The notes beneath the pieces are model-generated. The model made no database searches. It was not told the DNA's origin and saw nothing but the letters and a program-made list of their open reading frames with translations. From Marinicella sp. (GTDB taxonomy: Bacteria; Pseudomonadota; Gammaproteobacteria; Xanthomonadales; Marinicellaceae): a stretch of DNA of 64,000 bases. This document shows, one piece after another, positions 7,482 through 63,387 of this stretch. The stretch spans positions 3,776,001 through 3,840,000 of the forward strand of contig OZ246001.1 of NCBI GenBank assembly GCA_965230295.1, written 5' to 3'. Made by a program: the position numbers and the translations under genes. Position 1 is the first letter of the stretch. Every line of letters begins with the position of its first letter.

Positions 7482-9752
7482 ATGATAAGCATGATTCATA
7501 AGTCCCTATTTATCCTTGGGTTGATTATATTGAGCATAAAGTCTAATGCTTGCGGTGGCAATACTGATATGTTTGTTACCACATGGCAAACAAACATTGC
7601 AAACCCAAATGAGCAATCTTTACATATTGTTCTAACCAATGGTGGATTTGATGACTATAGCTATAATGTAGATTGGGACTGTGACGGCGAGTTTGATGAA
7701 ACAGATATTACTGGTGATTTGGTTCACACATTTGGTTCCCCTGGCACATACCAAATTGGTATATATGGTGATTTTCCATCTTTCAAATTAGTTCACAGCG
7801 CAATAAACGAGAAGCAGAAACTAGTTGGAATTGAACAATGGGGTACCAACAACTGGAGGAGCATGTCAAGGGCGTTTCAAGGTGCTTCTAATTTAGTTGT
7901 TAACGCAACTGATATTCCAAATCTTTCATCTGTGAGCGGATTGAATAACATGTTTGAAGGTGCCACCTATGCCAACCCAGATGTAAGCAACTGGGATCTT
8001 TCAAATATAGATAATATTTCAGGCATGTTCCGCGCGGTAAACTTTAACCCTGATGTCAGCAATTGGGATACATCTAATATTGTAACAATGGTCCGAGTTT
8101 TTGAAAATGCATTGGGCGCGGAACCTGATGTCAGCAACTGGAATACCTCCTCAGTTACCAACATGAGCTATATGTTCTCTGGAGCGAGCAGTGCTGACCC
8201 TGATGTAAGTGGTTGGGATACCTCCAACGTAACCAACATGAGTAATATGTTTTCTGGAGCGAGCAGCGCTGAGCCTGATGTAAGTAGTTGGGATACCTCC
8301 AATGTGACCAGAATGAACTCAATGTTTCGAGATGCTACCAAGGCTAACCCTGATGTAAGTGGTTGGGACACCTCCAACGTGACCTACATGAGTAGTATGT
8401 TTTTTGGAGCGAGCAGTGCTGAGCCTGATGTAAGTGGTTGGGACACCTCTAACGTGACCAGCATGGTCTCAATGTTTTTTGGAGCGAGCAATGCTAACCC
8501 TGATGTAAGTGGTTGGGATACTTCCAACGTGACTGACATGAGCGCAATGTATTATGGAGCGAGCAATGCTAATCCTGATGTAAGTGGTTGGGATACCTCC
8601 AATGTGACCAGAATGAACTCAATGTTTCGAGATGCTACCAAGGCTAACCCTGATGTAAGTGGTTGGGATACTTCCAACGTGACTGACATGAGCCTAATGT
8701 ATTATGGAGCGAGCAATGCTAATCCCGATGTAAGTGATTGGGATACTTCCAACGTGCTCAACATGGGTTTTATGTTTTTTGAAGCGAGCAGTGCTAACCC
8801 TGATGTAAGCGGTTGGGATACTTCCAACGTGACTGACATGAGCGCAATGTATTATGGAGCGAGCAATGCTAACCCTGATGTAAGTGATTGGGATACTTCC
8901 AACGTGGTCAACATGGGTTCTATGTTTTTTGAAGCGAGCAGTGCTAACCCTGATGTAAGCGGTTGGGATACTTCCAACGTGACCAACATGGGTTTTATGT
9001 TTTTTGAAGCGAGCAGCGCTAACCCTGATGTAAGTGGGTGGGACACCTCCAACGTGACCAACATGAATTTTATGTTTTCTGGAGCGAGCAACGCTCACCC
9101 AAATATACTTTCCTGGAACATTGAAATGGTAATCCATATGTATAAATTCTTGACTGATTCATCTCTACCACCGAGGCAATATGACCTAACACTCCAAAAC
9201 TTTGCTTCTCAAAATGTTCAAAGTGATGTCGATTTTTCTGCAGGGGATTCTTGGTACTGTGATGATGTTAATAGGCAGGTACTTATTAATAAAGGCTGGG
9301 ATATTTTCGATGCAGGTCAAGGCTGTGGTTTGGACTTGTCAGTTTCCATAAATAATATTGCCCCTCATGTAGTTGGTGGAGAGATAGTGAAATACATTGT
9401 TACGGTAAAGAACACTGGATATGAGGACTCACTACCAGGAAACTCAACACTGGAAATCAATTATTCTCCAGCTCATTTTAACCTAGTAAGCTTCGAGTGT
9501 TTATCACTTGTCAATGCAACTTGTTTTGACGATGGCGGCATATTAAGTTTTACAATTGATGCATTTGCTGAGAGCGAGATGAAGGTGTTGATATCGGCAG
9601 TACCGAATGCTTTAATTGGTTCACAGGTGAATATGCAAAGCAACATTTCAGTGGTTAATCAGGAGGACCTGTTTATGCCAGATAATCAAGACGAACTGAT
9701 CGAAGTTGTTCTGGCTTCTGATGATCCTATTTTTTACAGTCGTTTTGACTAA
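7482..9752 (+). CDS. Secreted DUF285/BspA-type repeat surface protein with DUF11-like C-terminal domain and DPIFYSRFD tail
   Basis: Signal peptide, PKD-like VDWDCDG...HTF, ~15 repeats of the 25-aa unit NPDVSGWDTSNVTxMxxMFxGASxA, DLSVS...YIVTVKNTG Ig-like domain. Confidence 0.88.
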   Translation: MISMIHKSLFILGLIILSIKSNACGGNTDMFVTTWQTNIANPNEQSLHIVLTNGGFDDYSYNVDWDCDGEFDETDITGDLVHTFGSPGTYQIGIYGDFPSFKLVHSAINEKQKLVGIEQWGTNNWRSMSRAFQGASNLVVNATDIPNLSSVSGLNNMFEGATYANPDVSNWDLSNIDNISGMFRAVNFNPDVSNWDTSNIVTMVRVFENALGAEPDVSNWNTSSVTNMSYMFSGASSADPDVSGWDTSNVTNMSNMFSGASSAEPDVSSWDTSNVTRMNSMFRDATKANPDVSGWDTSNVTYMSSMFFGASSAEPDVSGWDTSNVTSMVSMFFGASNANPDVSGWDTSNVTDMSAMYYGASNANPDVSGWDTSNVTRMNSMFRDATKANPDVSGWDTSNVTDMSLMYYGASNANPDVSDWDTSNVLNMGFMFFEASSANPDVSGWDTSNVTDMSAMYYGASNANPDVSDWDTSNVVNMGSMFFEASSANPDVSGWDTSNVTNMGFMFFEASSANPDVSGWDTSNVTNMNFMFSGASNAHPNILSWNIEMVIHMYKFLTDSSLPPRQYDLTLQNFASQNVQSDVDFSAGDSWYCDDVNRQVLINKGWDIFDAGQGCGLDLSVSINNIAPHVVGGEIVKYIVTVKNTGYEDSLPGNSTLEINYSPAHFNLVSFECLSLVNATCFDDGGILSFTIDAFAESEMKVLISAVPNALIGSQVNMQSNISVVNQEDLFMPDNQDELIEVVLASDDPIFYSRFD

Positions 9753-10273
9753 TTTAATGCATAAGTACTTTATGGCACAAATAAATACTGTTCTGAATAA
9801 GTGGAAAAAGTATATATTGTTTGCTTTTCATATAAAGATGTATCGGAATCAGTCATGAAAGAACATAAACATTAAGAGATAATGAGCCTGGTATAATCAT
9901 CCAGTATGTTTACAAATAATTCTAACCCCAGCCAATAATCTTGAAGTAAGTAAAATCATTCTGCCAAATCTGATTCATTCGGGTACTGGGTTTGTCAAAC
10001 TTATCTAAAGCTTGCACCAGAATGTAAGCTGGAGATTTAACCAAGCCTTGTAACTTCAACAGCCTTTACTTTGATTATGATATATGAAACCTTGGGAATC
10101 GCTATATTTGACCGTCAGTTCTTGTGGCGTTACATTGGCATGGTTCAAAGCCATTTCAGCAATGGCTTGTTTCAGTGATAAAGTTTCTGCGCAAAGATTT
10201 TTTGAGAACCAAAAGAGTGCAGGATACTCTGGCCTTACAACAACGCCCTCATATTACATTTAGCTAATTTGTT

Positions 10274-10337
10274 TGCAACAATTTTAAAATTTATTGCAAC
10301 CAGCTTAATATCGCCCCTAAAACATTATTCATATTAT
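10274..10337 (+). promoter_or_regulatory. TGCAAC-N15-TGCAAC box with -10 element
   Basis: tgcaac 10274 and 10295 (21-bp period); TATTAT at 10332. Confidence 0.7.
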
Positions 10338-10421
10338 GTGTGTATGCACGATTTTTTCTGAATTTTCGTGAACTGAGAAAAATCAATCATTTGAATGGCT
10401 TAGATCTACTGATCAATATTA

Positions 10422-11825
10422 ATGAGGTATACCATGAATACAAAGGTTCTTAACAATAACAAAATTTTATTAACAACAGCAATATTAATGGAATTAACCA
10501 CTCGACCTACGACTGTCAACGCCGCCACTATCTTCGTCGACCAAGAAAATTGTCATTTAGCTTCAGCAATCGTTGCTGCAAATACTGATTCTGCTGTATT
10601 TGGTTGTACAGCTGGTTTTGGAGCAGATGAGATCGTTTTAAGCTCAAGAACCCAGATTGTTCTGAATGAGGCCCTGCCAATTATTAACAGTTCCATCACT
10701 ATACAAGGCAATGAATCAAGCATTGAAAGAAATAGTACAGATATATTCAGGGTGATAGATGTTCAGGCTGGTTCCTTAACTTTAAACGACGTTACTTTGA
10801 GTGGCGGTGCTTCTGAAAATTCAGGTTATAGGACGGATTATGGTGCAGGTATAAGGGTGTCATCTGGAAAACTGTATACAAACAATGCTATTGTTAAGAA
10901 CAACAGCGGAATTGGTGTTGCTGTATTGAACAATAGTATCGCAACCATCAACAACTCTGTGGTTGAAAATAATAACGGTTTGGCAACATATTTCAGCGGT
11001 GGAGGCGGGCTTCATATTGAAGGCAGCCAAGTAGATGTGCTCAACAGTGATATTTCAAATAATAACAACAATTCAACTGGGTTTGGTGGGGGTGGTGTCT
11101 ATATTTCAAATTACAATGCCCTATCAATTGTGAACATCAACAGCAGCAGTATTAATAACAACACTTCAATCCGCAGTGGTGGTGGAATAAGTGCCATTGC
11201 CAGTGGTGCAGGGGGGGCAGATGCTATTACTTTAAATATAAGAAACTCAACCATTAGTGGAAATACAACTGATGAAAATGGTGGAGGCATACACTGTAAC
11301 CTTATCAATTCATCAATCATCAGTAGTACAATCTCCGCAAACACAGCTACTGGATACAGGGGCGGTGGGATTTCATGCGGCATCAGTTTTTTACCAGCAG
11401 GATCTGTTGTTAACATTGAGCACAGCATTATATCTGGAAATATTGCGGAAATTGGTAGTGAGATTAACGATTTGGATTCGGTATTTTCAAATGGCTATAA
11501 CATCATAGGTCAGCTGGGTTACAATGGAATAGCAGGACCACTCACGCCTGTTGTATCAGATTTGGTGCCCACCGTTAGTATCGAAAATATAATCAAAAAC
11601 CTTGCTGATAACAGTTCTAACAATAACAAGGGTATGACTCATAATTTAGTGACTGCTAGCCCAGCCATTGACTTGATTAACAACAACATTGATTGCGAAA
11701 CAAGGGATCAAAACGGAGTAATCCGACCACTTGATGGAGATGGGTCCTCAACTAGCGAGTGCGATGCGGGTGCTGTTGAATACGAATTTCACTCTGATTT
11801 GATTTTCAGCGACGGCTTCGAATGA
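10422..11825 (+). CDS. Secreted parallel beta-helix protein with choice-of-anchor Q domain and DLIFSDGFE tail (start probably 10434)
   Basis: CHLASAIVAAN N-terminal motif, GGGI/NSTISGN repeats, C-terminal LADN...THNL...SPAID...DQNG..RPLDGDG...CDAGAVE. Confidence 0.85.
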   Translation: MRYTMNTKVLNNNKILLTTAILMELTTRPTTVNAATIFVDQENCHLASAIVAANTDSAVFGCTAGFGADEIVLSSRTQIVLNEALPIINSSITIQGNESSIERNSTDIFRVIDVQAGSLTLNDVTLSGGASENSGYRTDYGAGIRVSSGKLYTNNAIVKNNSGIGVAVLNNSIATINNSVVENNNGLATYFSGGGGLHIEGSQVDVLNSDISNNNNNSTGFGGGGVYISNYNALSIVNINSSSINNNTSIRSGGGISAIASGAGGADAITLNIRNSTISGNTTDENGGGIHCNLINSSIISSTISANTATGYRGGGISCGISFLPAGSVVNIEHSIISGNIAEIGSEINDLDSVFSNGYNIIGQLGYNGIAGPLTPVVSDLVPTVSIENIIKNLADNSSNNNKGMTHNLVTASPAIDLINNNIDCETRDQNGVIRPLDGDGSSTSECDAGAVEYEFHSDLIFSDGFE

Positions 11826-17675: not shown

Positions 17676-19256
17676 ATGGATAAAATTACATTTGTGTATA
17701 TGATTTCAAGTTTGCTTTTTCTAGCTATAAACGGTTTACTCAGTCCGAGCCGGAATATTAATTTAGCTGACATCAATGGAAACAACGGCTTGGTGATTCA
17801 TGGGGAGCAAACTTCAGATTTTTCAGGTTATTCGGTCAGTAGTGCAGGTGATGTTAATGGAGACGGGATTGATGACATAATTATTGGTGCTTTTGAACCA
17901 GATCAGAACACAAAATACAATACTGGGCGCAGTTATGTGGTTTTTGGTAGTGATCAAGGGTTTTCTAATCCATTGGGTTTGGAAAACCTGAATGGATCTA
18001 ACGGTTTTGTTATAAATGGTGCTGAACACAATGATTCATCGGGCATGTCAGTTGCCTCAGCAGGTGACTTTAATAACGATGGGGTTGGAGATTTGCTTAT
18101 AGGAGCACCTGATGCATCAACAGGCATTGGATCAGTTTATATCATTTGGGGTAACAGGGAAGAACAATTCCCCAGCCCATTTGAATTGTCAGACATTAAT
18201 GGTGTTAACGGACTGGTTATCCATGGCGAAGAAGTTCAAGGGAAACTGGGTTTTTATGTCAGTTCAGCGAGTGATGTTAATGGTGACGGAATCAATGATA
18301 TGATTATTAGCTCACCAAAATCGGATGGCAATGGTACTGTCGATTCTGGTGCTATTTATGTGATATTTGGGAATGAATTGGGGCTTCCAAACCCATTTCG
18401 TGTCGGCTCCATTAATGGGGTGAATGGATTTAAGATCAATGGAGTTCCAACTACTGGTGCTCAGTCTGGTTTTTCTGTTAGCAAAGCAGGTGATATTAAT
18501 GCTGACGGTATTTCTGACCTTCTAATTGGTGTTCCATTTGATTCTAGTAACGGTAATTTGTTGTCAGGAAAAGTATACATTATTTTTGGAAAAAATAATG
18601 TATACCCAAATCTCTTTGAACTCTCAAGTATAAATGGATTGAATGGCATTCAGATTAATGGAGAAAATCAGGATGATCATTTAGGTTATTCTGTCAGTTT
18701 GGCTGGCGATGTCAATGGCGATAGTATAGACGACATCATTCTGGGAGCGCCATTTGCACAAGCTAATAATAGCGTGCAAGCTGGTGCCGCATATGTGATA
18801 TTTGGCAGCAATAAAAGACTACCAAACCCATTCAATATATCTACTATCAATGGTTTGAACGGATTCAAGATCACTGGAAATATCATTGGAGGCAAGCTTA
18901 GTCATTCAGTAAGTGGTGGAAGCGATATCAATGGCGATGGCTTAACCGACATAATAATAGGAGAACCTGATTCTAGGGCAGGAAGGAGTCATGTAATTTT
19001 TGGAAGCAACGAGGATTTCTCTAACCCATATAGCGTTGACTCTATCAATGATTCAACTGGATATACCATTAACGGTGTTAATGGTGGTGATTTACTGGGA
19101 TTCTCAGTCAGTGGTGCTGGAGATTTTAACGATGATGGTATTGGTGACATTATATTAGGTGCACATGGTGCTGATCCAAATGATATTTTTGAAGCTGGTA
19201 ACAGCTATGTGATATTTGGGAAAGAACAACCCGTTTTTGCTAATGGATTTGATTAA
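17676..19256 (+). CDS. Secreted FG-GAP (integrin-alpha-like) 7-repeat beta-propeller protein, QPVFANGFD tail
   Basis: Seven G-x-SV...GD[VFI]NxDGxxDxxIGA...YVIFG repeats with Ca-binding DxNxDG loops. Confidence 0.9.
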   Translation: MDKITFVYMISSLLFLAINGLLSPSRNINLADINGNNGLVIHGEQTSDFSGYSVSSAGDVNGDGIDDIIIGAFEPDQNTKYNTGRSYVVFGSDQGFSNPLGLENLNGSNGFVINGAEHNDSSGMSVASAGDFNNDGVGDLLIGAPDASTGIGSVYIIWGNREEQFPSPFELSDINGVNGLVIHGEEVQGKLGFYVSSASDVNGDGINDMIISSPKSDGNGTVDSGAIYVIFGNELGLPNPFRVGSINGVNGFKINGVPTTGAQSGFSVSKAGDINADGISDLLIGVPFDSSNGNLLSGKVYIIFGKNNVYPNLFELSSINGLNGIQINGENQDDHLGYSVSLAGDVNGDSIDDIILGAPFAQANNSVQAGAAYVIFGSNKRLPNPFNISTINGLNGFKITGNIIGGKLSHSVSGGSDINGDGLTDIIIGEPDSRAGRSHVIFGSNEDFSNPYSVDSINDSTGYTINGVNGGDLLGFSVSGAGDFNDDGIGDIILGAHGADPNDIFEAGNSYVIFGKEQPVFANGFD

Positions 19257-19750: not shown

Positions 19751-21940
19751 ATGAAGTTATCATTGCTATTAGTTTTATTAATCATCAAACAGCCTATTCA
19801 AGCTGGAGAAACTGAGCTCTCAAATCCAATTATGTTTGTTACGCAGTTTCCTATATCGAGTGACTTTGGCACAATTGGATCAACATTTGCAAATCACAGA
19901 GCTGACATAGCGGCTGTAGGTAGAGGCGGTGATTTGTACATCAGATACACTAATGGTGACTTAAGAAACTTAACCAGAGAGGCTGGTTTTGGCCAAGTGG
20001 GATTGCAAACGGGTAACGGGATTGCTGTTCGTGATCCAAGTATACATTGGAGCGGTGAAAAAGCATTGTTTAGTATGGTTGTCGGAGCTCCAGAAAGATT
20101 CGGTTCTAATGAATATTATTGGCAATTATATGAGATAACTGGTTTTGGAGTAGGAGAAACGGTTTCAATAACTAAGATACAAAACCAACCAACTGATTAC
20201 AACAATATCACTCCGATATATGGATCGGATGATGCAATCATTTTTACCTCAGATATGCCCAGGAGCAAAAACAGGCATAATTACCCACAATATGATGAAT
20301 ATGAATCAACACCCACTAATACAGGGTTATGGAGACTTAAAGAAGGTCGTGTCTCTTTGATACAACACTCACCATCTGGTTCTTTTAGTCCCTTAGTTGA
20401 TAGTTATGGTCGACTGGTATTTACACGTTGGGATCATTTGCAAAGAGATCAACAAGCTTCCCCAATAAATATAAATGGAGCCTTTAACTACAGCAGTGAA
20501 TCTCCAAACGCTCAATTACTGAATGAAATCACTGAAGTATTTCCGGAACCAAGACCAATTGAGTTCGATTTATTAAATGGAACCAATCTAGTTGGGCATA
20601 GAAGCAATCATTTCTTCCCTTGGCAAATCAATCAGGATGGCACTGAGGAAGAAACATTAAACCATGTGGGTCGTCATGAGCTTCATAGTTTTTTTGCTAG
20701 ATCTATAAACGATGATTCAAATGTAGTAGATTTCATAATTGGACAAAATCGCCCAAATCAAAACGCCATTCTTAACACCCTTCACTTGAATGAAGATCCC
20801 AACAATCCAGGGAGGTTCCTTGCTATTGATGCTCCAGAATTTCAGACACATTCAGGCGGACAATTGATTTCTTTTGATTTACCACTCGGTGCTGATCCTT
20901 CTTTAGTAACTGTCAGCTATATGAGCCATGAAAGTACTCGCTATGTGGTAGCAGATGGTACCACCGCTTCTCCAGAGCACGTTGGTTTTTTTCGCGAAGC
21001 AAGAACATTAACTGATGGTACTATCATAGCTTCACATACTTCTGAAACGAGGAAGGCCGGTAATGAAGGAACGTTAACTAATCCAGACCCCAGGTATGAT
21101 TTTACCATCAAAACTTTAACTCAAAACCAATCAGGAAATTGGGTGCCTGATTCCAGAATAACAAATTTAAACACAGTCAACATATCCTATTACAATCCTG
21201 ATGAGTTGGTGGATTATACTGGTCCTTTATGGGAGCTAATGCCTGTTGAAGTTGTGGCTCGAGAAGTACCTACTTACACCAGCGAAATTTTGCAGCCCCC
21301 CGAGCTTCAGGTTTTTGCTGAGGAAAATGTTGATGTCCAGTTATTTAAGGAATTTCTGAAAAACTATCGATTGGCACTTGCGGTGATGCGCGATGTAACT
21401 ACAAGGGATGAATTAGATTTACAACAGCCCTATAACCTCAAAGTGGCAAGCAGTGATCATCAAACTATTGCTAATAGTGGTCAATTATATGAAATTTCAC
21501 ACATGCAATTTTTCCAAGGAGATCAAATCAGGGGATATGGTGGAATAGATTCCCCCTTAAGTGGGCAGAGAGTTTTGGCTCAATTTCAACATGATTTAGC
21601 AGCCGATAAATATAATCTTCCATTCTCATCAAACCCACCTGGAAGTACTGAAATCTTTTCAGATGGTTCAGTTGCATTCTTAGTACCTGCTAACCGAGCG
21701 ATGAGCTGGCAAACTCTCGCTCCTGATGGTGAGGCTGTTGTGCGAGAACGTTACTGGGTAAACTTCCAACCAGGTGAAATTAGGGCGTGTGGTGGATGCC
21801 ATGGAGTCAATCAAGTTGATCAAGCAGGGCAGTTACCGTCCACTCAAAAACCAGAAGCTTTGCGAGCATTGTTAGCACATTGGAAAAACACATTCACAGA
21901 CTTAATTAAGAAGCATGACTTTGAGGTTGTTGAGCAATGA
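19751..21940 (+). CDS. Secreted HzsA (hydrazine synthase alpha)-like beta-propeller protein with C-terminal CxxCH heme-binding motif
   Basis: GAGGAG RBS before ATG 19751; TolB-like propeller motifs (RDPSIHWSG, FSPLVDSYGR); WVNFQPGEIRACGGCHG; degenerate tail DLIKKHDFE. Confidence 0.75.
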   Translation: MKLSLLLVLLIIKQPIQAGETELSNPIMFVTQFPISSDFGTIGSTFANHRADIAAVGRGGDLYIRYTNGDLRNLTREAGFGQVGLQTGNGIAVRDPSIHWSGEKALFSMVVGAPERFGSNEYYWQLYEITGFGVGETVSITKIQNQPTDYNNITPIYGSDDAIIFTSDMPRSKNRHNYPQYDEYESTPTNTGLWRLKEGRVSLIQHSPSGSFSPLVDSYGRLVFTRWDHLQRDQQASPININGAFNYSSESPNAQLLNEITEVFPEPRPIEFDLLNGTNLVGHRSNHFFPWQINQDGTEEETLNHVGRHELHSFFARSINDDSNVVDFIIGQNRPNQNAILNTLHLNEDPNNPGRFLAIDAPEFQTHSGGQLISFDLPLGADPSLVTVSYMSHESTRYVVADGTTASPEHVGFFREARTLTDGTIIASHTSETRKAGNEGTLTNPDPRYDFTIKTLTQNQSGNWVPDSRITNLNTVNISYYNPDELVDYTGPLWELMPVEVVAREVPTYTSEILQPPELQVFAEENVDVQLFKEFLKNYRLALAVMRDVTTRDELDLQQPYNLKVASSDHQTIANSGQLYEISHMQFFQGDQIRGYGGIDSPLSGQRVLAQFQHDLAADKYNLPFSSNPPGSTEIFSDGSVAFLVPANRAMSWQTLAPDGEAVVRERYWVNFQPGEIRACGGCHGVNQVDQAGQLPSTQKPEALRALLAHWKNTFTDLIKKHDFEVVEQ

Positions 21941-50666: not shown

Positions 50667-52254
50667 ATGAAAGTAAGAAAAAAAGTAAGAATAGTTTTAA
50701 TATCGGTAGTATTGTGGTATCAAGGAGCCCTTGCGCAATTACCAAACGAACTCGATTTATCTACATTGAATCATCAAAATGGCATAGGTATCAATGGCGA
50801 GAATACTGGTGATAATTCAGGTATATCAGTCAGTTCAGCAGGTGATTTCAATAATGATGGGATTGATGATTTGATTATTGGCGCATACCGTGCCTCGAGT
50901 CGGAATGGTGATGAAACTGGGAAGAGTTATTTGGTTTTTGTCAATCGGCGCTATTTACCCAACTCGTTAGATCTGTCCACCCTCGATGGCGAAAATGGTA
51001 TTATTTTCATTGGCGGAAATGCAGGTGATGAATCGGGTCGTTCAGTCAGTTCAGCAGGCGATGTCAATGGGGATGGAGTTGATGATTTGATTATTGGGGC
51101 CTCTGGTGCAGATACGTATGTAAAGTCAAATGTTGGTAAAAGTTATGTGATCTTTGGTAGTGAAACTAGTTTACAAAACCCGTTTGATCTGTCCACACTC
51201 GACGGCAAAAATGGTTTCATTATCATTGGCGAAAGTGAAAATGATTATTCAAGGCTATTCTGTCAACTCAGCAGGAGATGTTAATGGCGACAGTATTGAT
51301 GATTTAATCATTGGGGCTTATGGAGCAGAGTCAAATGCTGGTAAAAGTTATGTAATCTATGGTAGTAGAGTCAATTTACCTACTTCATTAAACCTGTCTG
51401 ATCTCGATAGTGAAAATGGTTTTATTATCAATGGCGAAAGTGCAAATGATATTTCGGGAGTTTCTGTCAGTTCGGCCGGTGATGTCAATGGTGATGGAAT
51501 TTATGATTTGATTATTGGGGCCTCTGGTGCAGACTGGGATGCAGGCTCAGATTCTGGTAAAAGTTATGTGATCTTTGGTAGTGACGATGAGAATGGTTTA
51601 CCAATACCTAATCCTTTAAATCTGTCCACACTCGATGCTAGAAATGGTTTCGTTATCAATGGCGAAAATGCGGGTGATTTCTCGGGCCATTCAGTCAGCT
51701 CAGCTGGTGATGTCAATGGGGATGGGATTGATGATTTAATAATAGGAGCACCTTCTGCAGAATCAAGCACGGGTAAAAGTTATGTGGTGTTTGGTAGTAG
51801 GGTTTCTTCACACTATCCTTTAAATCTTTCTGATCTCAATGGTGAAAATGCGAATGATCTTTCGGGATTTTCAGTTAGTTCTGCCGGTGATTTAAATAAA
51901 GATGGGTTTAATGATATTATTATTGGAGCTTCTTTTGCAGACCCAGATGCACACTCGGATGCTGGTAAAACTTATGTGATCTTTGGCAAAAGCGGCCTTT
52001 TTTCCAGTCCATTGAACTTGACTGATCTCAATACCAACTTTCAAAATGGTGGTGTTGTCATCAATGGAGAGCACACATTTGATGAGTCGGGGTTCTCAGT
52101 CAGTTCAGCAGGTGATATCAATGGCGATGGAGTTGATGATTTAATCATTGGGGCTCCTGGTGGAGGTGTGAATGCTCATTCAAGTGCTGGTAAAAGCTAT
52201 GTCGTCTTTGGAATGGAAAACTCAGATGTTATTTTTGAAACGGGGTTTGAGTGA
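50667..52254 (+). pseudogene. FG-GAP 7-repeat gene split by a +1 frameshift near 51252, DVIFETGFE tail
   Basis: gat tat tca A ggc tat versus paralogue gat tat tcg ggc tat; ORFs 50667-51284 and 51154-52254 join into one 7-repeat protein. Confidence 0.85.
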
Positions 52255-52578: not shown

Positions 52579-54300
52579 ATGAAAAAAATATTCGCTCTAT
52601 ATTTTACATTGGTATTCGCTCAAGAATTATTGGCACAGTATTCACTGTTTGATGACTCTTATCTACATGAAATTAGAATCACTTCAACAGATCCGAATTT
52701 TTGGGAAATCTTGGAAAATGACTGGCAGCCAGTTGGTGACATTCCTTACCGATCAGCCACCGTTGAAATAGATGGTTTCAAATTGACAGAAGTGGGGGTG
52801 CGTCAAAAAGGTTTTTCTTCAAACTTCTTTGTAAATACCACCAAAAAACCATTGAAGCTTCATTTCAGCAAATTTGTTGATGATCGTGAATATGATGGAG
52901 TCAGAAAGTTGAATTTAATGAATGGAGTGGGTGATCCGGCTTTGCTCAAAGACAAAATGGCCTATGACATGTTCAGATATCACGGAATACCTGGGCCCAG
53001 AGTTGCTCATACCAAACTTTATATCAATGATGTCTTTTGGGGAGTATATGGCATGATTGAGCAAATTGACAAACGTTATTTAAAACGTAACTTTGCTGAC
53101 AATGACGGTAATTTGTGGAAAAACCAAGGAAATTCTGACCTCAGTTGGCATGGTTCTGACCCAACCAGCTACAGTTTTGAACTGCAGACTAATGTAGAGG
53201 GTAACGATTGGAGTAAATTTATAGAGTTTGTTGACTTCATTAACAATGCCACAGATATTGAATTTGAAAATAATTTTACCGATATTTTTCATTTGGATGA
53301 ATATTTAAGGATTGTGGCGATTGATATTCTAATAAATAACTGGGATTCCTATTTAGATCATGGTCGCAATTGGTACATGTACCATGAGCCTAGATCTGAC
53401 AAAATTCACTGGCTCCCTTGGGACTACAACTTTGCATTTGACCGTCTGGTGGATGGTTCCAATGACCTTGATTTAATACAGAATGACTTAGGTAAAATAC
53501 TCAATGTCAGAATTTTTAATACTCCTGAGTTTCGCACCCAAATAATGGGCTACATGTGTGAGTTATTGGATCATAATTTCACCAGTGATAGACTGACACC
53601 AATGATGGATACCCAATTGTCATTAATAGAAAATGACTGGAACTCCAACAATAATTTTTTCTCTATCCAAGACATAGAAGATTATATCAATGGCGCCACA
53701 TGGACAGGCAGTCAAATAGGTGGAACGTTTCAAGGCTTGAAAGAATTTATTTTAGATCGCAGGGGCAGTATTCAAGCTGATTTGAGTAATCAAAACCATG
53801 CTTGTAGCTCATTACCTGCTGCTGTTGGTTTTCAAGATTTGGTCATTAATGAATTTATGGCCGATAACGACGATGACAGCCCATGGATGGACCAAGATGG
53901 TGAGTTTGATGACTGGATTGAAATTTATAACAACACCAACCAAACGGTCAATTTAGACAACTATTTTCTCAGCGATACCAGCACTTTTGAACACAAATGG
54001 GAATTCCCTAACATTGATATTCCGGCCAATGGATACCTTATAGTTTGGGCCGATAAAGACGTCGATCAAACCGGCTTGCACACTCAGTTCAGTTTGGATA
54101 AAGATGGCGGTGAAATAATCTTATCTCATATAGATAATACAGTCGTCGACAGTGTTTCTTACGGTGAGCAATCAGGCAACATAAGTATGTCAAGAGTCCC
54201 AAATGGCATAGGTAATTTTATTAGTACAGAAACAGTTACACATGGGTCTGCCAATGTACCAATTGATGACTTAATCTTTACCAACAGTTTCGAAAGTTGA
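52579..54300 (+). CDS. Secreted CotH-kinase family protein with lamin-tail domain, DLIFTNSFES tail
   Basis: VGVRQKGFSS, NWDSY...RNWYMY, WLPWDYNFAF (CotH); LVINEFMADN...DWIEIYN (LTD). Confidence 0.9.
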   Translation: MKKIFALYFTLVFAQELLAQYSLFDDSYLHEIRITSTDPNFWEILENDWQPVGDIPYRSATVEIDGFKLTEVGVRQKGFSSNFFVNTTKKPLKLHFSKFVDDREYDGVRKLNLMNGVGDPALLKDKMAYDMFRYHGIPGPRVAHTKLYINDVFWGVYGMIEQIDKRYLKRNFADNDGNLWKNQGNSDLSWHGSDPTSYSFELQTNVEGNDWSKFIEFVDFINNATDIEFENNFTDIFHLDEYLRIVAIDILINNWDSYLDHGRNWYMYHEPRSDKIHWLPWDYNFAFDRLVDGSNDLDLIQNDLGKILNVRIFNTPEFRTQIMGYMCELLDHNFTSDRLTPMMDTQLSLIENDWNSNNNFFSIQDIEDYINGATWTGSQIGGTFQGLKEFILDRRGSIQADLSNQNHACSSLPAAVGFQDLVINEFMADNDDDSPWMDQDGEFDDWIEIYNNTNQTVNLDNYFLSDTSTFEHKWEFPNIDIPANGYLIVWADKDVDQTGLHTQFSLDKDGGEIILSHIDNTVVDSVSYGEQSGNISMSRVPNGIGNFISTETVTHGSANVPIDDLIFTNSFES

Positions 54301-54669: not shown

Positions 54670-55872
54670 ATGAAAATGAAATTATTAGTCACATTATTAA
54701 CCATATTTATGTTTTTTAACATAGATGTTTGGGCTTTTGATTGTTCGAACCCAGATGTTTCTGTAGCTGAGTGTAATGCGTTAAATGATATGTACGGCCC
54801 TTTAGGCATAGCGAGTTCATCATTAATTGCTGTAGATATAATTAGTTGGGGAGAAGAAACTGACAATACTGTTTGTGACATATCAGTAATTGAATGCGAC
54901 TCATCTATCCCTAAACGTGCTGTTCATTTACTTTTATCTCGCAAAGACTTGATAGGCACTATCCCCGACCTGAGTGCTTTGGCCAGTTTGCAACGCCTTG
55001 ACCTGAGTAATAATAATCTCAGTGGTCACATCCCTGACCTGAGTGCCTTGACCAATTTGAAATTCCTTTACCTGAATCAAAATAATCTTAGTGGCCACAT
55101 CCCTGAGCTAGATGCCTTGACTAATTTGCAACAACTTTACCTACATATTAACGATCTCAGAGGTCCCATCCCTGACTTGAGCGTCTTAACTAATTTGAAA
55201 CACCTTCTCCTATATCGTAACAATCTGAGTGGCCCCATTCCTGACTTGAGCGCCTTGACCAGTTTATATAGCCTTATTCTGGAGGATAACAATCTCAATG
55301 GCACCATTCCAGACTTGAGTGCCTTGACTAATTTGCAAAACCTTTACCTAAGTCGTAACGACCTCAATGGTCCCATCCCTAACTTGAGTACCTTGACCAA
55401 TTTACAATACCTTTACCTGAGTGGTAATGATTTCAGTGGCCCCATTCATCGTTTAAGTACCTTAACCAGTTTGAAACACCTAACCTTAAACGATAACAAT
55501 TTCAGTGGTACCATCCATAGCTTGCGCACTTTGATCAATTTGCAAGTTCTTTTCCTGAGTGATAACAATCTTAGTGGTCCCATCCCTGACTTGAGCGCCT
55601 TAACCAATTTGCAACTCTTTTATTTGGCTAACAACTATTTCTTTGGACACTTTCCCGATCTCAGGCAAACAGATTTGCCAGAAGGAAATACGTTGAATTT
55701 TCATTCAAACTGCATAGAGCCGAATGTTAATAACTTTGTTAATGACTGGACTAATGCCAGAACTAGTCCTGCTAATGGCTTTGATAATCAACACGCAGAT
55801 ATAAATACATGCTTGGACGTGTATGCAGACTTCATCATTACAGATACGGTTTTCATCGATACATTTGAGTAA
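54670..55872 (+). CDS. Secreted leucine-rich repeat protein (~11 x 23-aa plant-type-like LRR), DTVFIDTFE tail
   Basis: LxxLxLxxNxLSGPIPDLSALTN repeats between Cys-containing caps (ECNALNDMY...CD...C; NC...C). Confidence 0.9.
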   Translation: MKMKLLVTLLTIFMFFNIDVWAFDCSNPDVSVAECNALNDMYGPLGIASSSLIAVDIISWGEETDNTVCDISVIECDSSIPKRAVHLLLSRKDLIGTIPDLSALASLQRLDLSNNNLSGHIPDLSALTNLKFLYLNQNNLSGHIPELDALTNLQQLYLHINDLRGPIPDLSVLTNLKHLLLYRNNLSGPIPDLSALTSLYSLILEDNNLNGTIPDLSALTNLQNLYLSRNDLNGPIPNLSTLTNLQYLYLSGNDFSGPIHRLSTLTSLKHLTLNDNNFSGTIHSLRTLINLQVLFLSDNNLSGPIPDLSALTNLQLFYLANNYFFGHFPDLRQTDLPEGNTLNFHSNCIEPNVNNFVNDWTNARTSPANGFDNQHADINTCLDVYADFIITDTVFIDTFE

Positions 55873-55977: not shown

Positions 55978-57738
55978 ATGAAACCAATAATAACTTTACT
56001 ATTTATTTTTTCTTTCTCATCTTCTTTTGCTGGTGGTGATATTGATCCATTTGTCATTACCATCACTACCACACCCCGCAACCAAGCAGACACAAACACT
56101 TTATTCAAATACGATTTACCAACTACTGAATATGAATACTCATATGATGTTGATTGGGACTACAATGGAGTCTTTGAAGCAGATGAAGTAGATGTAAATG
56201 GAATTTTAGAACATGATTACGGTAATCCTGGAGAATATACCATTGCTATTAAAGGGATATTTCCTAAATTTGGTTCATCACGCCCTGATCATATAGATCA
56301 ATTAGTAAGCATAGATCAATGGGGAGATATTGTTTGGAAAAGTTTTGAAAGCTCTTTTCGTGGTCAATATGATATCCGACCCGCTAGTTATATTGTAAAT
56401 GCAACAGACATTCCTGACTTGTCAATGGTTAACTCTCTATCAGAAATGTTTTTTATTTCAAGCCAAGCTAATCCAGATGTGACTGGGTGGGATACATCCA
56501 ATGTTACTGACATGAGCTTTATGTTTTCTGTTACTGACGCAGCCAACCCAAATGTGAGTGGATGGGATACATCCAACGTTACTGACATGAGCTTTATGTT
56601 TTCTTTTGCTGACGCAGCCAACCCAAATGTAAGTGGGTGGGATACCTCCAATGTTACTGACATGAGCGGTATGTTTTTTGATTCTGCCATAGCCAACCCA
56701 GATGTGAGCTTATGGGATACATCCAACGTTACTGACATGAGCTTTATGTTTTCTTTTGCTGACGCAGCTAACCCAGATGTGAGTGGGTGGGATACATCCA
56801 ATGTTACTAAAATGGGCGATATGTTTGCAATAGCAAGATTAGCTAACCCAGATGTGAGTGGATGGGATACATCCAATGTTACTGACATGACCCGTATGTT
56901 TTATGGTGCTGATGCAGCAAACCCAGATGTGAGTTTATGGGATACATCCAATGTTACTGACATGACCCGCATGTTTTTTGGTGCTATCTTAGCCACCCCA
57001 GATGTGAGTTTATGGGATACATCCAATGTTGCTGATATGAATGAATTGTTCGCTTATGCAGGATCTGCTAATCCTGATTTAAGAAACTGGGTTATTGAAA
57101 ATGTTAATAGCATGAATGACATGTTTAACTCTAACAAAATGAAACGCAGTAATTATGAAGCCGCACTGATTTCTTTTGCGACGCAATTTACGAATAATAA
57201 TGTTAATTTTGCTGCTGGTTCTTCTCTGTATTGCTCATCAGCTGCTGAAAATGCAAAAACCTTTCTTACAGGCCCTACCAAGAATTGGACGATAGTCGAT
57301 GGATCTGATGGTTTACCAAGTTGCGACATAAATGATGTTTCTGTTTCTATAGAAAGTAATCGTAGCCTACTTGCCCCAGGAGGTATGGTTACTTACCACA
57401 TCAGTATTAAAAATGATGGGGATAGGGATATTGATGATTTGAATGTGATCACCAATACAATGTTATTAACCAACTTGAATTGGGGATGTGAGGCCGTCAG
57501 CGCCACATGTCAAGATTCAGCTGGTAATGGTCCAATTTTGCACAGTAGTACAATAAATTCAGGTGGTGAAATCACTTATATTATCAATGCTACTAATGCA
57601 GGTATGAATGGTGAATATGCTATGATTTCTATTACAGCACAAAGCATCGATACCCCAGATGATTTTCTAAGAGATAATACTGCAACTTTGAATAGCAGAA
57701 CATCAGATGATATTATTTTTTATAATTCACTCGATTAA
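55978..57738 (+). CDS. Secreted DUF285/BspA-type repeat protein with DUF11-like domain, DIIFYNSLD tail
   Basis: Signal peptide, 8 full NPDVSxWDTSNVTDMxxMF repeats, VTYHISIKNDG Ig-like domain; paralogue of 7482. Confidence 0.9.
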   Translation: MKPIITLLFIFSFSSSFAGGDIDPFVITITTTPRNQADTNTLFKYDLPTTEYEYSYDVDWDYNGVFEADEVDVNGILEHDYGNPGEYTIAIKGIFPKFGSSRPDHIDQLVSIDQWGDIVWKSFESSFRGQYDIRPASYIVNATDIPDLSMVNSLSEMFFISSQANPDVTGWDTSNVTDMSFMFSVTDAANPNVSGWDTSNVTDMSFMFSFADAANPNVSGWDTSNVTDMSGMFFDSAIANPDVSLWDTSNVTDMSFMFSFADAANPDVSGWDTSNVTKMGDMFAIARLANPDVSGWDTSNVTDMTRMFYGADAANPDVSLWDTSNVTDMTRMFFGAILATPDVSLWDTSNVADMNELFAYAGSANPDLRNWVIENVNSMNDMFNSNKMKRSNYEAALISFATQFTNNNVNFAAGSSLYCSSAAENAKTFLTGPTKNWTIVDGSDGLPSCDINDVSVSIESNRSLLAPGGMVTYHISIKNDGDRDIDDLNVITNTMLLTNLNWGCEAVSATCQDSAGNGPILHSSTINSGGEITYIINATNAGMNGEYAMISITAQSIDTPDDFLRDNTATLNSRTSDDIIFYNSLD

Positions 57739-57991: not shown

Positions 57992-58107
57992 ATGTCTCTA
58001 AATTCTTCATTGTCTTGTAAACCTTTCAATCGAAGTTAATTTAAGTTTTTAAAATGTTTTGAGCATACTGAAAATCAATCATTACGATTTTGTTTGATTT
58101 CATTGCC

Positions 58108-58197
58108 CAATAGGTTAGATTACAATAGGTTAGATTACAATAGGTTAGATTACAATAGGTTAGATTACAATAGGTTAGATTACAATAGGTTAGATTA
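58108..58197 (+). repeat. Perfect 15-bp tandem repeat (caataggttagatta)x6
   Basis: Directly visible; ends 1 bp before ATG 58199. Confidence 0.97.
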
Positions 58198-58198
58198 T

Positions 58199-59053
58199 AT
58201 GAAAATAAAATTATTAATCATATTTATGTTTTTTTTAAGCATGGATGTTTGGGCATTTGATTGCTCTAGCCCAGATGTATCTGTAGCTGAGTGTAATGCG
58301 TTAAATGATATGTATGGCCCTTTAGGCATAGCGGGCTCATCATTGCCTGCAGCAGACATAAACAGCTGGGGGGAAACTACCGACAATACCGTTTGTGACA
58401 TATCACGAATTACATGCGATTCATCCACACCAAGACGTGTTACTCGCTTACATCTAGTCGGCGCGGACTTGAGAGGCACTATCCCTGACTTGAGTGCATT
58501 TACTAATTTGCAAGATCTTTGGTTAGCTAATAACCAGCTCATTGGTCACATCCCTGACTTGAGTGCCTTGGCCAACTTACAATCTCTTGATTTACAGCGT
58601 AATCAACTCAGTGGTCCCATCCCTGACTTGAGCGCCTTAACCAATTTACAACGCCTTTTCTTGCATGTTAATCAGCTCACAGGCCCTATCACTGAGTTGA
58701 GCGCCGTGACCAGTTTGCAACGCATTTACCTGCAATTTAACAATCTCAGTGGCCCTATCCCTGACTTGAACGCCTTGGACGATTTGCAACAACTTTCTTT
58801 GGATAACAATTATTTTTTCGGAGAATTTCCCGACCTCAGAGAAACAGGACTACAAGAAGGACGTACGTTGGGTTTTCATACAAACTGCATAGAACCGAAT
58901 GTAAATAATTTAATTAATGACTGGGTAAATGCCAGAACCAGTCCTAATAACCATTTTAATAATCAACGTGCAGATATAAATACATGCTTGGATGAATTCA
59001 TCATTACTGATATGATTTTCATTGATACATTTGAGTTCGATGCGTTTGAATAA
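58199..59053 (+). CDS. Secreted LRR protein (~6 x 23-aa LRR), DMIFIDTFEFDAFE tail; paralogue of 54670
   Basis: MKIKLLIIF start matches paralogue MKMKLLVTL; the upstream YNRLD translation is just the VNTR; caps nearly identical to 54670. Confidence 0.9.
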   Translation: MKIKLLIIFMFFLSMDVWAFDCSSPDVSVAECNALNDMYGPLGIAGSSLPAADINSWGETTDNTVCDISRITCDSSTPRRVTRLHLVGADLRGTIPDLSAFTNLQDLWLANNQLIGHIPDLSALANLQSLDLQRNQLSGPIPDLSALTNLQRLFLHVNQLTGPITELSAVTSLQRIYLQFNNLSGPIPDLNALDDLQQLSLDNNYFFGEFPDLRETGLQEGRTLGFHTNCIEPNVNNLINDWVNARTSPNNHFNNQRADINTCLDEFIITDMIFIDTFEFDAFE

Positions 59054-59924: not shown

Positions 59925-60440
59925 ATGTCTTTAAAACACAGGAGTAGTTCAATGATCTCAAAAAATCAAAACGGAGCCGCAATAGGCTTTTATTTTGCTG
60001 CCTTTACCTTCAATGGAGACAATGGCTTTCGGCTGGACGGTGGAGTTGGTGTGGATTCCATGTTTGGAAGTGCACTCAGCGAAGCAAAAGATGTGAATCT
60101 AGATGGTATAGATGACATCATAATTGGCTCATCGATTGGTTTTGTGGGCTCAGTTCTAGCTGCGGGTAAAAGTTATGTTGTATTCGGTAACGATGAGGGA
60201 GTGAGCCATCCTTTAAATATTTCTGAATTAAATGGGAGCAACGGCTTTTCCATTTTGGGAGCTGATGTCAATGGATATCTGGGAACCAGCGTCAGCGGAA
60301 TTGGTGATTTCAATGATGATGGAATTGGAGATGTGATGATGAGTGCACCACGAGCGGATGTTGGTGGAGAAAACGAAACAGGTAAAAGCTTTATCATATT
60401 CGGAAATGAACAGGCCATCTTTGTCAATGGTTTTGACTGA
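59925..60440 (+). pseudogene. Truncated FG-GAP gene (last two blades), QAIFVNGFD tail
   Basis: Two repeats (DVNLDGIDD, DFNDDGIGD), no intact signal peptide. Confidence 0.7.
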
Positions 60441-61722: not shown

Positions 61723-61788
61723 GTGCACTTATTTACTGACAAGAGTGGAAAGGGAAAATATAAAGAGTCTAGCTTTCGATAAGTGCAC
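61723..61788 (-). terminator. Large-loop 3' hairpin (family member)
   Basis: Minus strand gtgcacttatcgaaagct...ttttccctttccactc...ataagtgcac, 18 bp after the 61807 stop. Confidence 0.55.
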
Positions 61789-61806
61789 AAACTGGTTGTT
61801 TAATGA

Positions 61807-63387
61807 TTAATCAAATTCAAACCCGTTAGTAAAAATGGCTGATTCTTTGCCAAAGATCACATAGCTTCTACCAGGTGATGTATCAGCCGGACCTGCATCA
61901 GGAGCCCCAATGATCAAATCATCAAACCCATCATCATTGACATCACCAGCTGAACTGACTGAAAAACCAGAGGAGTCAGCTGTATTTTCACCATTGATAA
62001 CAAAGCCATTTTTACCATTTATTGAGGACAGTTCAAACGGATTGGGTAAACCACTAGCACTGCCAAAAATCACATAGCTTTTTCCTGCATCTGTATTACC
62101 ATTTGGATCGGCAAGATTGGCTCCAATAATCAAATCAAAAATTCCATCACCATTGACATCACCCGCTGAACTGACAGAGTGACCTGACTCATCACCTGTA
62201 TTTTCACCATTGATAACAAAGCCATTTTTACCATTTATTGAGGACAGTTCAAACGGATTGGGTAAACCACTGGCACTGCCAAAAATCACATAGCTTTTAC
62301 CTGCATTTGTCTTACCATTTGGATCGGCAAGTTTAGCTCCAATTATCAAATCATCAATCCCATCGTCATTGACATCACCTGCTGAACTGACAGAAAAGCC
62401 CAAATAATCATCAATATTTTCACCATTGATAACTAGACCAATCGGGCTAGTTAGACTAGACAGAGTTAACGGATTAGGAAAACCACTATTCCTATTCCTG
62501 CCAAAGATCAAATAGCTTTTACCATCGCTTTCTGCTCCAGGTGCCCCTACAATTAAATCATCAACCCCATCATCATTAATATCACCAGCTGAGCTAACTG
62601 AACGGCCTGACCAATCATTTTCATTTTCGCCTTCGATAACAAACCCATTTTCATCTTTGAGATTTGATAGGTTTAGCGATCCCGAAAAACCACTTTTACT
62701 GCCAAAAACCACATAGCTTTTACCTGCAGATGATTCGTTATTCGGGCTTGCAGAAAAGGCCCCAATAATTAAATCAACAACCCCATCACCGTTTACGTCA
62801 CCAGCAGAACTGACTGAATAACCCGAATAATCATCTTCATTTTCGCCATTAATCATAAAACCATCCACGCCATAGGGAAATGAAAGATCAATCGGATTAG
62901 GTAAATCATCCTCACTGCCATACACCACATAACTTTTACCAGCTTTTGACTGTGCGCCATAAGCTCCAATGATCAAGTCATCAATCTCATCGCCATTGAC
63001 ATCACCTGCTGAACTAACTGAAATACCTGAAAAATAGAACCTATTAACACCATTGGCAACAAAACCATTCTCACCATCAAGAGCTGAAAGGCTCAACAGC
63101 TTGGGAAAATCACCCTCACTGCCATACACTACATAGCTTTTACCAGCATTAAATCTACCACCTAAACCAGCGCTAAAAGCCCCAATGATCAAATCATCAA
63201 TTCCATCACCATTGATATCACCAGCTGAACTGACTGAAAAACCAGAGGAATCACCTTCATTTTCGCCGTTCATAACAAAGCCGTTGCTGCCATCAATATC
63301 TTCTAAGTTAAGACTTGAATAATACTCAGCAAATCCATCAGTAGAAATAAGTATCAAAGTAAAAGTTATATAAATAAATGTTTTCAT
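61807..63387 (-). CDS. Secreted FG-GAP 7-repeat protein, SAIFTNGFEFD tail
   Basis: Signal peptide GFA-E, seven repeats; blades 5-6 share a near-identical duplicated segment. Confidence 0.92.
   Translation of the reverse strand: MKTFIYITFTLILISTDGFAEYYSSLNLEDIDGSNGFVMNGENEGDSSGFSVSSAGDINGDGIDDLIIGAFSAGLGGRFNAGKSYVVYGSEGDFPKLLSLSALDGENGFVANGVNRFYFSGISVSSAGDVNGDEIDDLIIGAYGAQSKAGKSYVVYGSEDDLPNPIDLSFPYGVDGFMINGENEDDYSGYSVSSAGDVNGDGVVDLIIGAFSASPNNESSAGKSYVVFGSKSGFSGSLNLSNLKDENGFVIEGENENDWSGRSVSSAGDINDDGVDDLIVGAPGAESDGKSYLIFGRNRNSGFPNPLTLSSLTSPIGLVINGENIDDYLGFSVSSAGDVNDDGIDDLIIGAKLADPNGKTNAGKSYVIFGSASGLPNPFELSSINGKNGFVINGENTGDESGHSVSSAGDVNGDGIFDLIIGANLADPNGNTDAGKSYVIFGSASGLPNPFELSSINGKNGFVINGENTADSSGFSVSSAGDVNDDGFDDLIIGAPDAGPADTSPGRSYVIFGKESAIFTNGFEFD

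Follow-up and report, generated by a model that had tools for sequence, protein, structure and literature searches.

The 64-kb window of DNA analysed here (G000:C1:3776001-3840000, where G000 is a Marinicella genome and the window is the whole stretch) raises the question of why exported proteins of unrelated families should end in almost the same nine residues. The genome is a single contig of 4,008,074 bp with 44% GC, for which a de-overlapped set of 3424 open reading frames (ORFs; 1.22 million residues) was obtained, and Marinicella spp. are the nearest named relatives of its proteins. The shared ending, a short C-terminal tail, is modular, is carried by exported proteins, varies between lineages and recurs in a longer version in another phylum, and it is under purifying selection at the protein level. 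Probably (at about 0.6) it is a membrane-free sorting or docking tag that is read by another molecule after Sec or Tat export.

In the window, a position matrix derived from the tails of G000 itself (cut-off of at least 16 bits) recognises 16 ORFs, with no more than 5 residues past the motif, and the consensus of these strong tails is D-[LV]-I-F-x-[DN]-G-F-[ED] followed by 0-5 residues. Degenerate tails on 5 further ORFs bring the window total to 21, which is close to the ~22 carriers counted in an earlier note on this DNA. All of them are given below in window positions, the 16 found by the matrix first and the 5 degenerate ones last.

11796..11822, + strand, tail DLIFSDGFE then stop, in the choice-of-anchor Q/beta-helix protein 10422-11825 (26.6 bits)
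19227..19253, + strand, tail QPVFANGFD then stop, in the FG-GAP protein 17676-19256 (Pfam)
29600..29626, + strand, tail DTIFKSGFE then CI, in the FG-GAP paralogue 27983-29635 (Pfam)
31363..31389, + strand, tail DMVFADGFD then CN, in the FG-GAP paralogue 29764-31398
33081..33107, + strand, tail DIIFESAFD then CN, in the FG-GAP paralogue 31452-33116
35010..35036, + strand, tail EVVFRNGFD then CI, in the FG-GAP paralogue 33633-35045
37119..37145, + strand, tail DIIFKNGFG then CM, in the FG-GAP paralogue 35559-37154
38844..38870, + strand, tail DMIFEDGFD then CI, in the FG-GAP paralogue 37281-38879
46240..46266, + strand, tail YLIFRNTFE then stop, in the exported protein 45154-46269 (no Pfam or NCBIfam match)
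48239..48265, + strand, tail QPIFADGFD then stop, in the FG-GAP protein 46679-48268
52225..52251, + strand, tail DVIFETGFE then stop, in the FG-GAP gene fragment 51154-52254 (N-terminal part in another frame, 50667-51284)
54268..54294, + strand, tail DLIFTNSFE then S, in the CotH kinase plus LTD protein 52579-54300 (Pfam)
55843..55869, + strand, tail DTVFIDTFE then stop, in the LRR protein 54670-55872 (Pfam)
59009..59035, + strand, tail DMIFIDTFE then FDAFE, in the LRR protein 58094-59053
60411..60437, + strand, tail QAIFVNGFD then stop, in the FG-GAP fragment 59925-60440
61816..61842, - strand, tail SAIFTNGFE then FD, in the FG-GAP protein 61807-63387
9723..9749, + strand, degenerate tail DPIFYSRFD then stop, in the DUF285/PARCEL lipoprotein-like protein 7482-9752 (DUF285 by Pfam; PARCEL repeats)
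21899..21925, + strand, very degenerate tail DLIKKHDFE then VVEQ, in the HZS_alpha-domain protein 19688-21940 (membership doubtful)
33496..33522, + strand, degenerate tail DKVFKSPFDGFVCH (DKVFKSPFD then GFVCH), in the 105-aa FG-GAP fragment 33223-33540
41003..41029, + strand, degenerate tail EIISANGFD then CM, in the FG-GAP paralogue 39401-41038 (under the matrix threshold)
57709..57735, + strand, degenerate tail DIIFYNSLD then stop, in the DUF285/PARCEL protein 55978-57738

Every tail quoted in the earlier note is present at the 3' end of the ORF that it named. Its family labels have been recovered for DUF285, FG-GAP, HZS_alpha, CotH plus LTD and LRR (all by Pfam) and for choice-of-anchor Q (NCBIfam); the label that fell was that of the supposed hydrolase (45154-46269), which has no match in either library. 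As it had also claimed, the tail is absent from the HTCS-like ORF 12667-16524, the Sortilin/VPS10 protein 22805-26059 and the ORF 48789-50009(-). One window carrier has a lipoprotein-type leader. Seven of the FG-GAP proteins form a tandem set of paralogues (27983-41038), all of which add a Cys and one more residue (CI, CN or CM) after the tail; six of these tails are strong and the seventh (39401-41038) is degenerate. The GC skew of this tandem region is very strong (0.26-0.31), and the GC content of the window is 34-41% vs 44% for the whole genome.

Window ORFs contribute just 16 of the 115 C-terminal copies of the motif in the genome, the remainder being spread around the chromosome. A regular expression gave 123 matches in the 3424 ORFs, 86 of them within 6 residues of the C-terminus, and the matrix trained on these 86 found 115 C-terminal ORFs and 18 copies elsewhere, only the 29 extra matches being independent of the training. 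In a residue-shuffled proteome the same matrix gave 2 matches, none of them C-terminal. The consensus of the 115 tails has D at position 1 (93), L, V, P or I at position 2, I at position 3 (103), F at position 4 (114), a variable position 5, D (58), N (31) or S (17) at position 6, G (69), D (20) or S (11) and never R at position 7, F at position 8 (112), and E (64) or D (41) at position 9. The motif is the exact C-terminal end in 67/115, and 1-6 unconserved residues follow in the other 48; the proposed tag of ~9 aa therefore stands as a nine-residue core, and not as a strictly terminal element. Codons are mixed at every motif position (for example, 52 TTT and 34 TTC, and four Gly codons) and tail genes use all three stop codons, which indicates that conservation acts on the protein and not on a DNA repeat.

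The carriers have little in common apart from the tail and their export. Once the tails are removed, the 115 proteins fall into 67 clusters unrelated by BLAST, the largest being FG-GAP with 19 members, and DUF285, LRR, CotH and beta-helix proteins are also represented, so that the idea of a modular element on unrelated families holds well beyond the window. A signal-peptide-like N-terminus was detected by a lenient hydrophobic test in 107/115 carriers vs 1858/3424 ORFs overall, in line with the claim that carriers are exported. The eight that failed are gene fragments, have a visible signal peptide, or run across the contig origin, and no cytoplasmic-looking carrier was seen among the 115. Leaders are of the Sec, Tat and lipoprotein types, two carriers having twin-arginine leaders. 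No hydrophobic 19-mer was found beyond residue 50 in any of 86 carriers, as expected from the claim that the tail lacks a transmembrane (TM) helix.

The distribution of the tail has been followed at the DNA level with a strict pattern, I-F-x-x-G-F-[DE]-stop. This pattern occurs 28 times in G000, 10-49 times in 23/23 genomes of the genus, 58 times in the sister genus and 2-16 times in most other families of the order, and backwards-pattern controls gave 0-2; among 300 further genomes over the class (including G025 and G036, of family f2), none has more than 2. Named database matches come from Marinicella, Dokdonella, Pseudofulvimonas, Rudaea, Rhodanobacteraceae, Wenzhouxiangellaceae and Lysobacterales metagenome-assembled genomes (MAGs), which agrees with the mention in the earlier note of such tails in Marinicella, Dokdonella and Wenzhouxiangella. 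Three families appeared tail-free by the strict pattern. In one of them, represented by G030, homologues revealed IFSDRFE followed by 1-6 residues, and this genome has 47 FxDRFE vs 2 in the control; 15/20 sampled sites lie 1-6 residues ahead of the stop in long ORFs, with varied Arg codons, and the sampled carriers are related in two pairs only. Another variant, FADSFE, is found 7 and 8 times in G029 and G040 vs 0 in the control, and the sites sampled in these two genomes are C-terminal in 11/12 cases. In f2, 0/4 sampled sites are C-terminal. An all-variant pattern gives 13-62 matches in 39/41 genomes of the order (controls, 0-10), with no match in one f2 genome and 3 in the other. Thus, position 7 differs by lineage, being G in G000, R in one family and S in another. 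A residue that is fixed across unrelated proteins within a genome and differs from one lineage to the next points to a shared, co-evolving reader. In one of the FADSFE genomes (G040:C424:1-13500, locus L206), three paralogous exported proteins of 86-88 aa end in LFADSFE-stop; two of them have low-GC3 genes of 640-765 aa as neighbours, with a tail carrier of 802 aa in between.

A longer form of the tail has been found in two Thermoanaerobaculia MAGs, where the motif is extended as GFEWGSTKFW-stop. FxDGFE occurs 84 and 54 times in these genomes vs 1 in the control, and in 20 sampled loci the distance to the stop is 7-17 residues for all 34 copies (exactly 12 for 20 copies). The consensus is about 19 residues long, [LI]F.DGFE.G.T..WS..VP-stop, and the length of ~9 aa first proposed for the tag is therefore that of its short form only. 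A long-tail profile retrieved 280 proteins from the database at E<=10; among the best 120, the motif is C-terminal in 110, and subtilases, FG-GAP proteins, ELWxxDGT proteins, M14 peptidases and beta-helix proteins are among the carriers, the few named ones being Thermoanaerobaculia or Acidobacteriota. In the other 10 of the best 120 the motif is internal, with 2-4 copies in multidomain proteins. Three of these were scanned, and a PF14099 domain (P0242 and P0266; HMM position 1) or a CBM_4_9 domain (P0254; HMM position 3) starts within 5 residues of the motif. Both are ConA-like jelly rolls (PF14099, Polysacc_lyase; PF02018, CBM_4_9) and share [hydrophobic]-x-D-G-F-E-x(4-8)-W with the tails, which differ from them in lacking the remaining 150-190 residues, since 0-6 (short form) or 12 (long form) residues follow the motif. 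No complete jelly-roll domain (~136-210 profile positions), and indeed no Pfam domain, covers the tails of the window carriers or 19 long tails. At the genome level, PF14099 was found in 0/5 genomes searched and CBM_4_9 in 4/41 genomes of the order.

The choice-of-anchor Q carrier of the window (467 residues) is of special interest because of the position of its tail. The choice_anch_Q domain (NCBIfam) covers residues 399-455 and the tail residues 459-467. In an alignment of 23 homologues with 34-73% identity to the window protein, I457 and F458 never vary, and at least 90% keep D455, G461 and F462, vs a mean column identity of 38%. AlphaFold2, run on this 23-row alignment, predicts a confident beta-helix with a pLDDT of 31-42 over the last 19 residues (residues 445-463 being under 50), and the tail is thus predicted not to pack onto the carrier fold. 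The slot behind the domain holds different endings in the best 120 database homologues: the short tail in 22, the long form in 2, a TM helix plus basic cluster in at least 10, an xLPxhh tail in 15, a ..V.F.L end in 5, LLLLN in 2 and no classifiable ending in 64. These endings support the earlier proposal that the tail fills an interchangeable anchor slot directly behind a choice-of-anchor domain. Two of the other endings lack a TM helix, namely the [FY]LP[LIM][IV]x[KR]-like ends (15/120; P0011, P0030, P0038, P0050, P0061, P0074, P0089, P0091, P0092, P0099, P0106-P0109 and P0119) and the ...V.F.L ends (5/120; P0049, P0051, P0087, P0088 and P0116). These xLPxhh-type and ..V.F.L tails may be further undescribed C-terminal tags of other lineages.

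A sorting or docking tag of this kind would work in three steps. Carrier proteins would cross the inner membrane by Sec or Tat with the tail attached; a component of the periplasm, the outer membrane or the cell surface would then recognise the unstructured tail; and this recognition would either move the protein across the outer membrane or hold it at the surface. We infer recognition by another molecule, and what it would achieve, from indirect observations: the lineage variants and the tail left unpacked by AlphaFold2 both support such recognition. Non-covalent retention or docking at the surface is tentatively favoured as its outcome, a handle for outer-membrane export (for example, by the type II system) seems rather unlikely, and any other recognition in trans very improbable. 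For the beta-strand donation to an outer-membrane transporter or surface scaffold that the earlier note put forward, no partner was found, and it stays a speculative mechanism. A more specific proposal, itself improbable, is that the tail is the detached first beta-strand (short form) or hairpin (long form) of a jelly roll, donated to an acceptor at the surface or in the outer membrane whose sheet would be without that strand. This would amount to donor-strand complementation for a whole secretome, with position 7 tracking the acceptor, and both Gammaproteobacteria (GTDB Xanthomonadales) and Acidobacteriota (Thermoanaerobaculia) would use it.

Known prokaryotic C-terminal sorting tags are, to our knowledge, either tripartite signals or folded domains. 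Like the tripartite signals (LPXTG/sortase, PEP-CTERM/exosortase, GlyGly-CTERM/rhombosortase, MYXO-CTERM/myxosortase and IPTL-CTERM), the tail is C-terminal, multicopy and found on unrelated proteins with signal peptides, has a patchy distribution across lineages, and lies behind choice-of-anchor domains. Tripartite signals are defined by a motif, a TM helix and a basic cluster and are cleaved by a membrane enzyme, and the tail shares 4 of the 7 identifying attributes given for them (bioRxiv 10.1101/2023.06.07.544157). In contrast to these signals, the tail has neither a TM segment nor an Arg-rich cluster (0/86), and the whole tag is 9 (long form, 19) residues long. No basic C-terminal cluster was found, as the motifs end in E (64) or D (41) or are followed by a few unconserved residues. 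Without a TM segment, the tail cannot be held by intramembrane or membrane-anchored sorting enzymes. Exosortase has 0 matches in G000, and the six rhomboid-like matches are all under the rhombosortase cut-off. The one sortase of G000 (1120140-1120502) is beside its own LPXTG-like target with a TM-type anchor; this locus (G000:C1:1120140-1124372) consists of the proteobacterial sortase, a 699-aa protein with the TM-type anchor and a 427-aa protein with two tandem tail motifs near its C-terminus. Six other proteins of G000 have a classical anchor made of a P-V-P-rich motif, a hydrophobic helix and basic residues, which we take to be IPTL-CTERM-like (G000:C1:3056-3868, 820214-821107, 982792-983415, 2285626-2286402, 2778439-2783760 and 3946541-3948502), and the best rhomboid-like gene (3944852-3945235, under the rhombosortase cut-off) adjoins one of them.

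Another system to be compared is the C-terminal domain (CTD) of the type IX secretion system (T9SS; Por_Secre_tail), a folded Ig-like domain of ~70-100 residues in Bacteroidota. It resembles the tail in being a membrane-free C-terminal tag, found dozens of times per genome, on Sec-exported cargo that crosses the outer membrane. The tail is far shorter, as had been claimed (9 residues, 19 in the long form, with low pLDDT), is predicted to be unstructured, and occurs in Gammaproteobacteria and Acidobacteriota. A SprA profile had no match in G000, and as the control search likewise matched in no genome, this result carries no information on the T9SS machinery. In Vibrio and Shewanella, GlyGly-CTERM is an additional C-terminal signal that determines whether type II substrates stay at the surface or are released. 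The likeness here is that every complete tail-bearing genome searched has GspD; GlyGly-CTERM, however, includes a TM helix and is the target of cleavage by rhombosortase in the inner membrane, and neither feature is present in the tail system. The signals that machinery of the periplasm or outer membrane reads by strand pairing, namely the beta-signal of the BAM complex and the pilin recognition of chaperone-usher systems, are also short, strand-like C-terminal motifs with conserved aromatics. The BAM beta-signal has an aromatic end, whereas the tail motif ends in D or E in 105/115, as the earlier note had observed on fewer tails, often with extra residues, and its carriers are soluble-type proteins and not barrels. 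Finally, type I secretion signals are uncleaved and belong to proteins without an N-terminal signal peptide, unlike the Sec-, Tat- or lipoprotein-type leaders of the carriers.

Database and literature searches agree with this comparison. NCBIfam gave no sorting model for 10 whole carriers (E<=0.01), for the last 30 residues of 10 tails (E<=10) or for 19 long tails; Pfam has no entry covering the short tail of the window carriers or the 19 long tails; and profile searches of the PDB with short and long tails gave chance internal matches only (E of at least 0.018), with no chain having a C-terminal tail. Literature searches, which covered result listings and of which the one by letter string was swamped by unrelated words, gave no description of either tail form, and one further preprint (10.1101/2024.05.07.592856) does not mention C-terminal tails. 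These searches are in keeping with the statement in the earlier note that no characterised mechanism was known for the tail. No known class accommodates it, and it is a candidate for an undescribed sorting tag.

Several observations weigh against a sorting or docking tag. Neither distribution tests nor gene neighbourhoods identified a receptor, peptidase or transporter. GspD is above the cut-off in 39/41 genomes of the order (in f2, present in G036 and absent from G025), with secretin matches only under the GspD cut-off in the two Thermoanaerobaculia genomes; a component found nearly everywhere cannot discriminate, and its presence is merely compatible with a dependence of the carriers on type II secretion. 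TIGR03032, PapD-like chaperones, PF14099 and CBM_4_9 do not track the tail distribution. As machinery, TIGR03032/DUF4915 was rejected: it was found in 26/41 genomes and 7/16 genera vs 39/41 genomes for the tail, and not in the tail-rich complete genomes G015, G023 and G026-G028. PapD-like chaperones (PapD_N) are missing from G000 and present in 5/41 genomes, both f2 genomes included, and PF14099 (0/5) and CBM_4_9 (4/41) do not follow the tail as a conserved jelly-roll acceptor would. The only family that tracks the tail within the order (L148) consists of exported proteins of ~470 aa, exemplified by G000:C1:855496-856917 (outside the window), directly downstream of gspD. It occurs in 39/41 genomes, usually beside gspD, and is absent from tail-free f2 only. 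G000 has 12 matches in total, with paralogues at 233751, 494636, 495996, 1418106, 2432775-2436986, 2579249, 2682126 and 3720947. The family has no Pfam or NCBIfam match, and its 2356 homologues at E<=1e-10 are all called 'hypothetical protein' where named. Its AlphaFold2 model is all-beta (pLDDT of 88.5), and Foldseek found nothing for this model at E<=0.001, the weak top matches being ConA-like sandwiches. It does not qualify as a receptor, being found in 9/299 other genomes of the class without clear tail enrichment and nearly absent from the Thermoanaerobaculia genomes; one paralogue ends in the tail-like DLIYLDGFEN, and a role as substrate is the more likely one for this family. Complex prediction of the family with the C-terminal 40 residues of the choice-of-anchor Q protein made no call either way. 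Gene neighbourhoods at 13 loci of tail-poor genomes and on a contig with four tail genes showed no shared neighbour, with a simple ORF caller that is poor at high GC.

The remaining points on this side concern the tail itself. The 18 non-C-terminal copies in G000, 3 of them just past signal peptides, mean that a free C-terminus is not required, and further domains, A/P-rich linkers or an 85-aa module come after some of the internal copies. In sequence, the long form equals the first strand or strands of ConA-like jelly rolls, the remainder of the domain being absent, and this match keeps a relic or structural origin in play. In addition, sampling of the variants covered one or two genomes of each family, genomes that are related cannot count as independent observations, and the signal-peptide tests were crude home-made scripts.

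The main rival holds that the motif is a relic or domain-boundary element, that is, the first strand or hairpin of a lost C-terminal ConA-like/CBM jelly roll, now a linker end or processing site with no sorting role. The multidomain proteins with 2-4 copies of the long motif, where PF14099 or CBM_4_9 starts within 5 residues, favour it, as do the G000 internal copies that precede domains or A/P-rich linkers. It is nevertheless judged unlikely, because 4-5 positions would not stay invariant in a relic on 115 proteins of 67 families, there is no reason for a cut at the same residue each time or for a concerted shift to R or S elsewhere, and the putative parent domains are nearly missing; as a processing site, it would have nothing beyond the motif to process in 67/115. 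Another rival takes the tail to be an intramolecular C-terminal cap or folding nucleus that shields a hydrophobic edge in beta-rich and solenoid exported proteins. Many carriers are indeed repeat or solenoid proteins (beta-helix, LRR, DUF285 and beta-propeller) and the tail has three conserved hydrophobic residues, but the 23-row AlphaFold2 model leaves it unpacked beside a confident beta-helix, it is also found on a CotH kinase, on Tat-exported enzymes and on 86-aa proteins, and genome-wide variants over unrelated folds are not expected of a within-protein contact, all of which makes a cap quite improbable.

A different kind of reader, a transpeptidase or peptidase of the periplasm or surface, would cut within the motif or just behind it and attach the protein covalently to a surface molecule, as sortase does, with G-F-[DE] plus 0-6 residues as the leaving group. 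The variable, unconserved 0-6 residues beyond the motif would suit this, and so would the mostly Asx residue three positions before the motif end (D 58 and N 31 of 115), presumably resembling the sites of Asx-specific peptide ligases. This residue is, however, S, T, H or another in 23% of tails, and G000 offers no candidate enzyme (exosortase 0, rhombosortase under the cut-off, and one sortase with its own target). Moreover, the sorting transpeptidases that we know of all need a membrane-held substrate, and covalent linkage is very doubtful. A chance or repeated-DNA artefact, such as a mobile element or a terminator-linked repeat, might be suspected in a window that is low in GC and rich in tandem paralogues; it is regarded as refuted by the diverse codons, the three stop codons, the chromosome-wide carriers, the 0 C-terminal matches of the shuffled proteome and the 0-2 of the backwards controls.

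A sorting or docking tag of 9 residues, without a TM helix or folded domain, on ~3% of a proteome (115/3424 ORFs), with a 19-residue relative on 54-84 proteins per genome in another phylum, would be of biological significance. If the tail is a true signal of this kind, environmental diderms would have a new receptor or pathway by which proteins pass the outer membrane or are displayed at the surface, it would make the secretomes of Marinicella, Dokdonella, Wenzhouxiangella and Thermoanaerobaculia predictable from sequence, and surface display would gain a tag that is portable and very small.

Some further observations were made around the tail genes. Three large proteins of G000 (G000:C1:1421560-1424421, 1502239-1506363 and 3172793-3178705) have the motif followed by a common C-terminal module of ~85-90 residues, which ends in a calcium-site-like D-x-D-G-D-G-x-x-N-x-x-D-x-x-P. 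The three TIGR03032/DUF4915 genes of this genome are all within 3 genes of a tail carrier (570623-572896(-), 988615-990657(+) and 3021874-3022914(-)); one of the three is fused to an Asp/Asn beta-hydroxylase domain and another to TPR repeats plus a GT9-like piece. Family f2, the only tail-free family of the order, has 2 and 4 PapD_N matches in its genomes and lacks the gspD-linked 470-aa family. Finally, six tail-carrier genes have at their flanks an ECF sigma factor (TIGR02999 type) paired with a Ser/Thr kinase of 860-960 aa that contains TPR repeats (for example, G000:C1:1522272-1525769, 2290581-2293972, 2520369-2523807, 3157254-3160447, 3244198-3247427 and 1136103-1138685), which suggests that parts of the tail secretome are under regulation of their own.

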